A program made the position numbers and the translations under genes. From NCBI GenBank assembly GCA_964636085.1, contig CAZWPQ010000003.1:3015-67014 (forward strand): DNA of 64,000 nt, written 5' to 3'. Positions 50,750 to 51,494 of this stretch are shown here, one piece after another (within the stretch, counting starts at the first letter, position 1; every line of letters starts with the position of its first letter). This DNA is from an uncultured Nitrososphaerota archaeon (lineage in GTDB: Archaea; Asgardarchaeota; Njordarchaeia; Njordarchaeales; Panguiarchaeaceae). The notes under the pieces were generated by a model, which saw nothing but the letters and a program-made list of their open reading frames with translations, had not been told where the DNA came from and did not search any database.

Positions 50750-50808
50750 GTCAGATAGAAAATTTGATTTTTCGTGGAGGCTGTCCCTGTCTAATCTAGG
50801 CTTCGATG
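50750..50808 (+). repeat. left terminal inverted repeat
   Basis: GTCAGATAGAAAATTTGATTTTTCGTGGAGGCTGTCCCTGTCTAATCTAGGCTTCGATG. Confidence 0.9.
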
Positions 50809-51437
50809 CTCTCTGCTCTGTCTGTCCTATGACTATCCACACTGTCCCATTCAACGAAAACGCCCAACAACGGGCGAGTGATAATAATGCATGCTAAACA
50901 TAGCATATAATTAAAAGCAGACATATCGAAGATAGTGTCCCTATCCAATCTAACCACCAATAATAAAATTTGTGTCATGTATCCGAAACGCTTTCCACCT
51001 GAGGCTTCATATAGGTGTCCCATATGGGACAGGCCTAAAACGATCAACATCATTCGTTACATCGCATGTGGCTTATGCATCTATAAACAGTAGTGTCGAA
51101 AGACAACATGGCTGTCCCAAGGCTGTCCCACGACTTTTCATGTTTCATGGTGCAGGGACACCAACATTAGGTGTTTGGGTTTTCGGCCTACGTGCGTACT
51201 TTCTCTGCTCGTTGGTTGGTATGGAAAATTCGTTTGCTTTATGTATCGTTTCGTGTATATTATCTGTTAGTGTTGTTTTTGGTAATGAAATTGTATTATT
51301 CTGTATTTATTAGGGGCTAGAAGCTTTTTTTCTGGCGCGTTGGGGGCTTTGGATTGGAGGGTTCATTTGATCTTGCTTTGGAATATTGATGGCTTTATAT
51401 TATGAAGTTCGTATGTGGATAAGAAGATGAATGAAAA

Positions 51438-51494
51438 CATCGAAGCTAGATTAGACAGGGCAGCCTCCACGAAGAATCAAATTTTCTATCTGAC
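51438..51494 (-). repeat. right terminal inverted repeat
   Basis: Reverse complement reads GTCAGATAGAAAATTTGATTCTTCGTGGAGGCTGCCCTGTCTAATCTAGCTTCGATG. Confidence 0.9.

Follow-up and report, generated by a model that had tools for sequence, protein, structure and literature searches.

A MITE-like element in a glycosylation island of a Njordarchaeales genome: a candidate non-autonomous mobile element of a genus-restricted family

Mobile insertion cassettes (MICs), such as MIC231 of the Bacillus cereus group, have ends in common with IS231 and make target-site duplications. Casposons produce target duplications of 14-15 bp, and their autonomous form carries Cas1 and PolB. Prokaryotic MITEs are defined as elements of ~50-800 bp with inverted repeats, no transposase and a target-site duplication of 2-10 bp (PMC11602168). 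The ends of hAT elements contain many subterminal repeats of variable spacing and orientation that reach up to hundreds of bp inward, and IS607-family elements have multiple subterminal motifs, GG at ends and target, and a tnpA gene, with neither target duplication nor terminal inverted repeats (PMC6188088). For one MITE, the Correia element of Neisseria, inversion with promoter effects has been reported (PMC10969869).

In the Asgard mobilome literature that we searched MITEs are not mentioned. The Njordarchaeota have variously been placed within or near the Asgard archaea, and to our knowledge their mobile DNA is almost undescribed. We analysed 64,000 nucleotides (hereafter the window) from an uncultured archaeon of the Njordarchaeales (GenBank assembly GCA_964636085.1, contig CAZWPQ010000003.1), in which a non-coding element of 745 bp bounded by inverted repeats occupies 50750-51494 on the + strand. 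With a probability of roughly 70%, we read this element as a copy of a non-autonomous mobile element that belongs to a new, genus-restricted family. On the best-supported description, the window copy resembles a MITE and its relatives resemble cassettes (MICs).

The element at the glycan locus

We found that the left terminal inverted repeat (50750-50808, + strand, 59 bp, outer terminus GTCAGATAG) aligns with the reverse complement of the right one (51438-51494, - strand, 57 bp) with one substitution and two one-base gaps, exactly as the original prediction had described. A repeat search of the window resolved the inverted-repeat arms as 50745-50786/51458-51499, 50785-50799/51446-51460 and 50800-50813/51433-51446. 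In the 64-kb window there are two exact copies of the 20-mer GTCAGATAGAAAATTTGATT, oriented oppositely, against 0.02 expected by chance. Past ~60 bp the inverted similarity between the two ends is absent (local score 58 vs 54.6 +/- 6.6 for shuffles), and the right repeat fits the family's end profile at positions 1-63/67 only. We considered whether a long inverted arm could be concealed in the right part of the window copy and rejected this, since there is no mirror past this distance. At the left boundary of the element numerous unrelated metagenome contigs part from the window sequence (loose ends at 50749-50751), and similarity to all other copies begins there as well.

The element lies between two genes on the - strand. 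The upstream neighbour (51543-52634), which ends in a stop codon 48 bp from the right repeat, encodes a GT4 glycosyltransferase, and the downstream neighbour (49260-50705) encodes a 481-aa polytopic membrane protein. In Pfam searches the former matched Glycos_transf_1 (E 6e-37). The latter gave a weak match to the polymerase-like EpsG family that is below threshold (E 0.0035, 17 bits vs a cut-off of 30). The predicted GT4 identity is therefore upheld and the 'GT-C-like' label given to the membrane protein is unconfirmed, because its EpsG match is sub-threshold. The TATA-like run of the EpsG-like gene, atataataaaaa, occupies 50721-50732, separated by 17 bp from the left repeat, so that the placement of the element between these genes and ~17 bp past a TATA-like box is borne out by both the ORFs and this run. 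The element is also richer in GC than the 2 kb on either side, as had been noticed, and the difference is slight (40.9% vs 36.9%).

Once the element is subtracted, 92 bp separate the GT4 gene from the EpsG-like gene. The predicted core promoter of the EpsG-like gene is intact after the insertion, its TATA-like box being untouched. The TATA-like boxes inside the element are directed away from this gene and toward the empty slot, at whose end is a T-run. They are predicted promoters, and an effect on the glycan genes is not evident from the sequence.

Most of the element consists of a conserved long arm, or unit (50750-51280, + strand), that is common to all copies at 70-90% identity. By BLAST against the own genome and relatives, this similarity spans element positions 1 to ~510-531, and the family alignment (A1) is unalignable past position ~510-540. 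Column diversity is lowest at positions 1-30 (0.12) and rises to 0.33 at positions 480-510. Such a gradient of conservation toward the terminus is as expected if the ends are the functional part.

Within the arm we found an array of the hexamer TGTCCC/GGGACA (50782-51160, both strands), with eight exact copies and a TGTCCT at 50823. The exact hexamers begin at 50782, 50843, 50936, 51016, 51113 and 51124 on the + strand and at 51026 and 51155 on the - strand. They are irregularly spaced and occur in both orientations, 8-9 per arm, at sites that are conserved in the family alignment. Eight hexamers in 420 bp compare with 0.185 expected from their frequency in the genome (Poisson P about 3e-11), and the sole further cluster in the genome outside family copies is a chance cluster inside a permease gene. 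Two facing hexamers form the perfect palindrome GTCCCATATGGGAC at 51017-51030; about half of the copies depart from it, by changes that are not compensatory.

The inner end of the arm (51238-51262, + strand, alignment columns ~501-530) carries two TATA-like boxes that face the slot. Their family consensus is TTTATAT and TGTATATT, and the window copy reads tttatgta and tgtatatta; the boxes may have promoter activity. Beyond them is the variable slot (51281-51437, + strand, 157 bp), which is non-coding and has a T7 run at 51325-51331. Element positions 531-688 had no BLAST match in the own genome, and the slot sequence is shared only with the metagenome contig L065, at 95% identity and beside another flank.

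The original prediction saw no credible ORF in the element, and we agree. ORFs inside the arm vary between copies in frame and extent and are broken or frame-shifted, those inside the element had no Pfam match, and substitutions by codon position in the longest frame were 0.30, 0.28 and 0.23, with no enrichment of the third position. The possibility that the element is a coding sequence was rejected on this lack of codon periodicity, of a conserved frame and of a Pfam match. An Rfam scan of 50000-52000 returned just a chance miRNA match (E 0.7). RNAalifold applied to 14 copies gave -39 kcal/mol over ~600 columns with a covariation term of -2.8, and column-shuffle z-scores were about -4 and alike on both strands, which suggests DNA palindromes or inverted motifs rather than a strand-specific RNA. 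Given the weak consensus, the null Rfam result and the strand-symmetric signal, a structured RNA is not convincing.

Copies, hosts and cargo of the family

The genome that contains the window (G000) is a 2.41-Mb assembly in 102 contigs that is 83% complete. All genomes compared are fragmented MAGs of 75-83% completeness, and metagenome runs (2017-2018) were examined as assembled contigs. By BLAST the element matched its own assembly at 29 places on ~17 contigs. Counting the copies, a check proposed in the original prediction, showed the element to be multi-copy: a profile of the first 131 bp found 20 family ends in the own genome, 14 in G002, 11 in G003 and 8 in G004, which are three of the four sister species ('Candidatus Njordarchaeota', vent sediments). 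The same profile found no family ends in the fourth sister species or in nine further genomes of the class, and BLAST against 40 relatives up to the level of phylum gave the same distribution. Beyond the known relatives, exact patterns combined with a BLAST filter recovered no family member among 185,579 GTDB species-representative genomes or in IMG/VR, and there was no family match among GenBank phages and PLSDB plasmids. When collections of metagenomes, viruses and genomes were scanned with short patterns, most hits were due to chance, and the BLAST filter left six metagenome contigs and the known relatives.

In the best-covered bins of four vent or sediment metagenomes, contig depth over 50740-51180 was roughly 4- to 70-fold that of the flanks, and in these metagenomes many unrelated sequences were joined exactly at 50749-50751. 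These many different joins indicate that the outer terminus is sharp and has many genomic contexts. Copies adjoin unrelated genes and are 70-90% alike, all of them being 10-30% diverged. In a tree of 21 arms the topology was star-like with a median tip of 0.12, and copies were not grouped by genome. The contig-end copies C19, C26 and C79 are 86-94% identical to each other; since these are not near-identical, a very recent burst is unsupported. Most copies consist of the long arm only, and a right repeat is missing from up to 9 kb beyond it. Contig C29 of G002, contigs C2 and C36 of the own genome and the metagenome contig L145 have two-ended relatives, which are 647-770 bp long.

The slot is empty in the window copy and holds toxin-antitoxin genes in relatives. 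At L153 a 1965-bp form has two ~560-bp arms, 96% complementary, around a DUF4258 gene and a small partner gene, with a second full arm, inverted, in place of the short right end. At three independent loci a DUF433 gene is found downstream of, and co-directional with, either the inner end of an arm or its ~380-500 fragment, and at one of these a DUF5615 gene comes next. A DUF4258 gene is co-directional behind the inner end of an arm at two loci, and a HicB-HicA pair at one. In G002:C104 and G002:C125 the second of the two TATA-like boxes is located ~20-30 bp ahead of the start codon of the following gene.

We also observed mini-forms (L140 2201-2310 and G003:C1:1156-1265) in which the outer 32 bp are fused directly to arm positions ~412-490; the one at L140 is followed by a co-directional HicB-HicA pair. 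The same 80-bp inner segment is retained in several otherwise deleted copies, a hint from sequence comparison that it may have a function of its own.

When the ORFs near copies were clustered, only host families were obtained (surface proteins, kinases, a methyltransferase and AAA ATPases). Past the arm of one-ended copies the genes look by eye like ordinary host genes, few of which were scanned against Pfam, and the ORFs that recur in the genome encode Rab-like GTPases and ATPases. Among the surface proteins is a family of secreted, C-terminally anchored proteins (G000:C23:5769-7439, C2:83359-85257, C2:88660-90519 and C79:1193-3151) with right-handed beta-helix-like repeats and long Asp-rich calcium-type repeats. 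Several of these genes adjoin copies, which suggests that copies can serve as markers of variable surface-protein regions. Runs of N in the assembly break some surface-protein genes, for example at about 90400-90500 of G000:C2. The archaeal AAA-type ATPases (~420-480 aa) are likewise multi-copy (G000:C4:37596-39023, C28:26291-27673, C80:228-1667 and C2:86215-87468); the longer members have by eye a nuclease-like C-terminal tail, two members are near element ends, and the Pfam scan of this family covered the C2 member.

Mobility and competing explanations

We saw no target-site duplication at any of six two-ended copies. When the ends were allowed to move by up to 4 bp, the best flank repeat was 2-3 bp, and these flank repeats were no better than random position pairs. 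For the window copy, the best flank repeat is 2 bp and below random position pairs, in line with the earlier remark that no duplication is evident there. The metagenome contig L065 carries element positions 477-744 at 95% identity beside a different flank, and its host genes are only 77-88% identical to those of the own genome. The genes that flank the copies on C49 and C6 have orthologues in G002 and G004 without the element. Searches with joined flanks or the left flank recovered no exact empty site in the genus, similarity stopping at gene borders, and the lack of a clean empty site is attributable to the break of synteny at every locus tested. Metagenome contigs likewise gave neither an empty-site joint nor a flipped joint for the window locus.

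No autonomous copy, and no transposase with family ends, was found in the five fragmented MAGs of the genus. Since these MAGs are 75-83% complete and MAGs often lose insertion sequences, a missing partner is weak evidence. Pfam searches of the genus for Phage_integrase, DDE_Tnp_1, Resolvase and Cas1 tied no gene to family ends. The tyrosine recombinase is a single Xer-like gene per genome, present also in the species without elements, and DDE_Tnp_1 occurs as fragments only, in two relatives. One such fragment, on G004:C233, was considered as the family transposase and rejected, being outside the element and without family ends. The IS607-like serine recombinases of the genus are unlinked to family ends. 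Among them is an IS607-family serine transposase at the extreme end of a contig (G000:C35:20549-21143, also L456 4550-5143; NCBIfam score 200.9, cut-off 110), and a shorter MerR-HTH/resolvase-like paralogue of ~190 aa (G000:C26:27732-28301) is conserved in 5/5 genus genomes. Thus, of the master copy and empty sites that the original prediction had envisaged, we found no transposase-bearing copy and no clean empty site, and did see orthologous flanks that lack the element (C49, C6).

The long inverted repeats 45 bp upstream of a surface-glycan gene also have the geometry of a phase-variable switch, in which inversion of the 627 bp between the repeats, by a site-specific recombinase, would turn an internal promoter toward or away from the EpsG-like gene. 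The segment between the repeats does contain TATA-like boxes, and the Correia element is a precedent; however, these boxes are directed away from the EpsG-like gene, and the repeats are the ends of a dispersed family, with ~20 ends per genome beside unrelated genes, most copies of which are one-ended and could not invert. There is no recombinase match (PF00589 or PF00239) on the 110-kb contig that holds the window (C3), the sole tyrosine recombinase of the genome being on C1 and the IS607-like serine recombinases on C35 and C26. Contigs assembled from the two metagenomes X1 and X2 join interior, right repeat and right flank in the orientation of the window with no mismatch, and no flipped joint at this locus was seen among assembled contigs, which drop rare variants. 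We consider such a switch very improbable; the dispersed repeats, the lack of a recombinase on the contig and the single orientation in contigs speak against the earlier suggestion of one. Alternatively, the arm might be a host cis-regulatory module rather than a transposon, made up of TGTCCC sites for a host DNA-binding protein and a promoter, spread by recombination and selected upstream of toxin-antitoxin and accessory genes. This would account for arm fragments (~380-500) that recur upstream of co-directional genes (C2b/L036, L145/L041, C25 and L140), for an inner TATA-like box at promoter distance from cargo start codons, and for the lack of both target-site duplication and transposase. 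It has no use, however, for defined 59-bp inverted ends or for two-ended copies of 650-770 bp that hold no gene, and conservation is best at the outer terminus and not at the promoter-proximal end. Within the genus one species lacks the family, as do the other genomes of the class, and the star-like, long-tipped tree resembles neutral decay, so that we hold this explanation to be unlikely.

Iteron-like repeats beside addiction modules are typical of plasmid maintenance regions, and the same combination here could mean that the copies are remnant ends of a larger, repeatedly integrated replicon, either a linear plasmid or virus with inverted terminal repeats or a casposon-like element, with the hexamers as iterons and the toxin-antitoxin genes as a maintenance module. 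The long inverted 560-bp arms of L153 would suit such a replicon, and in G002:C125 an arm is directly upstream of a 329-aa gene whose translation is coupled to that of a Cas1-like gene, with no CRISPR context. On the other hand, IMG/VR, GenBank phages and PLSDB plasmids hold no match, no replication, capsid or PolB gene is found beside any copy, and the 14-15-bp duplication is absent. The Cas1-like protein resembles the Cas1 of CRISPR type I-B more closely than it does the casposase of solved structure, and no arm is found near its paralogue in G002:C25. A transposon would also better account for twenty ends scattered over 2.4 Mb. An origin from a larger replicon is therefore doubtful.

The two Cas1-like paralogues of G002, 41% identical, are found at L297 4830-6806 (G002:C125) and at L455 7001-11103 (G002:C25), and both are without adjacent CRISPR, Cas2 or Cas4. 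The operon in G002:C25 also has a weakly similar 352-aa gene, a 182-aa gene and a gene for an XPD/DinG-like helicase. Because PolB is absent, neither locus is a classical casposon. We treat the arm with the 329-aa/Cas1-like gene pair in G002:C125 as no more than a lead.

We return to the reading of the element as a non-autonomous mobile element. It is supported by copy number and different loci, the sharp terminus and the conservation gradient toward it, the non-coding nature of the element, the star-like tree, the two-ended relatives, the cargo forms, the hexamer array and the match to the definition of a MITE. It is weakened by the lack of a target-site duplication, of an autonomous copy or transposase and of a clean empty site, by the prevalence of one-ended copies and by the 10-30% divergence of all copies. 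Thus, the original proposal of a MITE stands as regards a multi-copy, non-coding element with a sharp terminus at sites that are non-orthologous in sister species, and falls short as regards target-site duplication, and no autonomous partner was found in the fragmented MAGs.

An element of this kind would owe its movement to an enzyme that acts in trans, from a gene at another site, and recognises its ends, and the TGTCCC hexamers are putative subterminal binding sites for this enzyme. As no target-site duplication is made, the enzyme is probably not an ordinary staggered-cut DDE transposase. The window copy, best read as old, would have inserted into the 92-bp spacer between the GT4 and EpsG-like genes, 17 bp upstream of the EpsG-like TATA box. 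Its inner boxes may give the element an outward promoter. A bolder proposal, which we put forward only tentatively and regard as rather unlikely, is that the family represents an undescribed type of archaeal transposon: one that inserts without duplication, is recognised through a long one-sided subterminal hexamer array and not through short ends alone, and carries toxin-antitoxin cassettes behind a promoter of its own. The enzyme could then be a recombinase or integrase new to archaeal transposition, with the IS607-like serine recombinases and the Cas1-like gene with its 329-aa partner in G002:C125 as candidates.

A genus-specific repeat with ~20 ends per genome explains contig breaks in Njordarchaeota MAGs. 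Copies of the family flag variable regions such as the glycan island and are usable for strain typing. At the glycan locus itself, the repeats are to be taken as transposon ends and not as evidence for phase variation. If confirmed, insertion without duplication and a promoter-bearing arm before toxin-antitoxin genes would make the family more than another MITE, since both features together would describe a cassette-carrying element with a new transposition chemistry.

Relation to known mobile-element classes

Compared with invertible promoter switches such as fimS and the Bacteroides invertons, the locus is alike in having inverted repeats around a few hundred bp upstream of a gene for a surface structure. 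It differs in that the repeats are dispersed, no invertase is nearby and contigs show a single orientation. Casposons are unlike the family in making a duplication, and the Cas1-like genes of G002 are without PolB, with only one of the two near an arm.

Two families with subterminal motifs are closer in the layout of their ends. Like IS607 elements, the family has multiple subterminal motifs and makes no target duplication; unlike them it has 59-bp inverted ends (GTCAG...CTGAC), flanks that are not GG and no gene. Like hAT (Ac/Ds) ends, the arm has many short motifs at variable spacing and orientation, which is a functional analogy and not a sign of membership, since hAT elements are eukaryotic and make 8-bp duplications.

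The closest classes are the prokaryotic MITEs and the MICs. The window copy, at 745 bp, and its two-ended relatives, at 647-770 bp, are within the size range of MITEs, and inverted repeats of 59/57 bp with three differences exceed the 10-15 bp looked for as a minimum. The element is non-coding and multi-copy (20 ends in the own genome, 8-14 in three relatives), and the six two-ended copies depart from the definition in having no target-site duplication. Like Sulfolobus SM elements and the Neisseria Correia element, the family is small, non-coding, multi-copy, intergenic and taxon-specific, with terminal inverted repeats and a possible outward promoter. Unlike these, it lacks a target-site duplication, and the search of the genus found no autonomous insertion sequence related to it. 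The family is also strongly asymmetric, with a conserved arm of 510 bp at one end and only ~60 bp at the other, a hexamer array that reaches 400 bp inward and unusually long 59-bp repeats. With MICs the relatives have in common that passenger genes are carried between inverted ends in place of a transposase (the DUF4258 pair of L153, DUF433/DUF5615 and HicAB). The family differs from MICs in lacking an identified IS partner and duplications, and the window copy differs in that its slot is empty.
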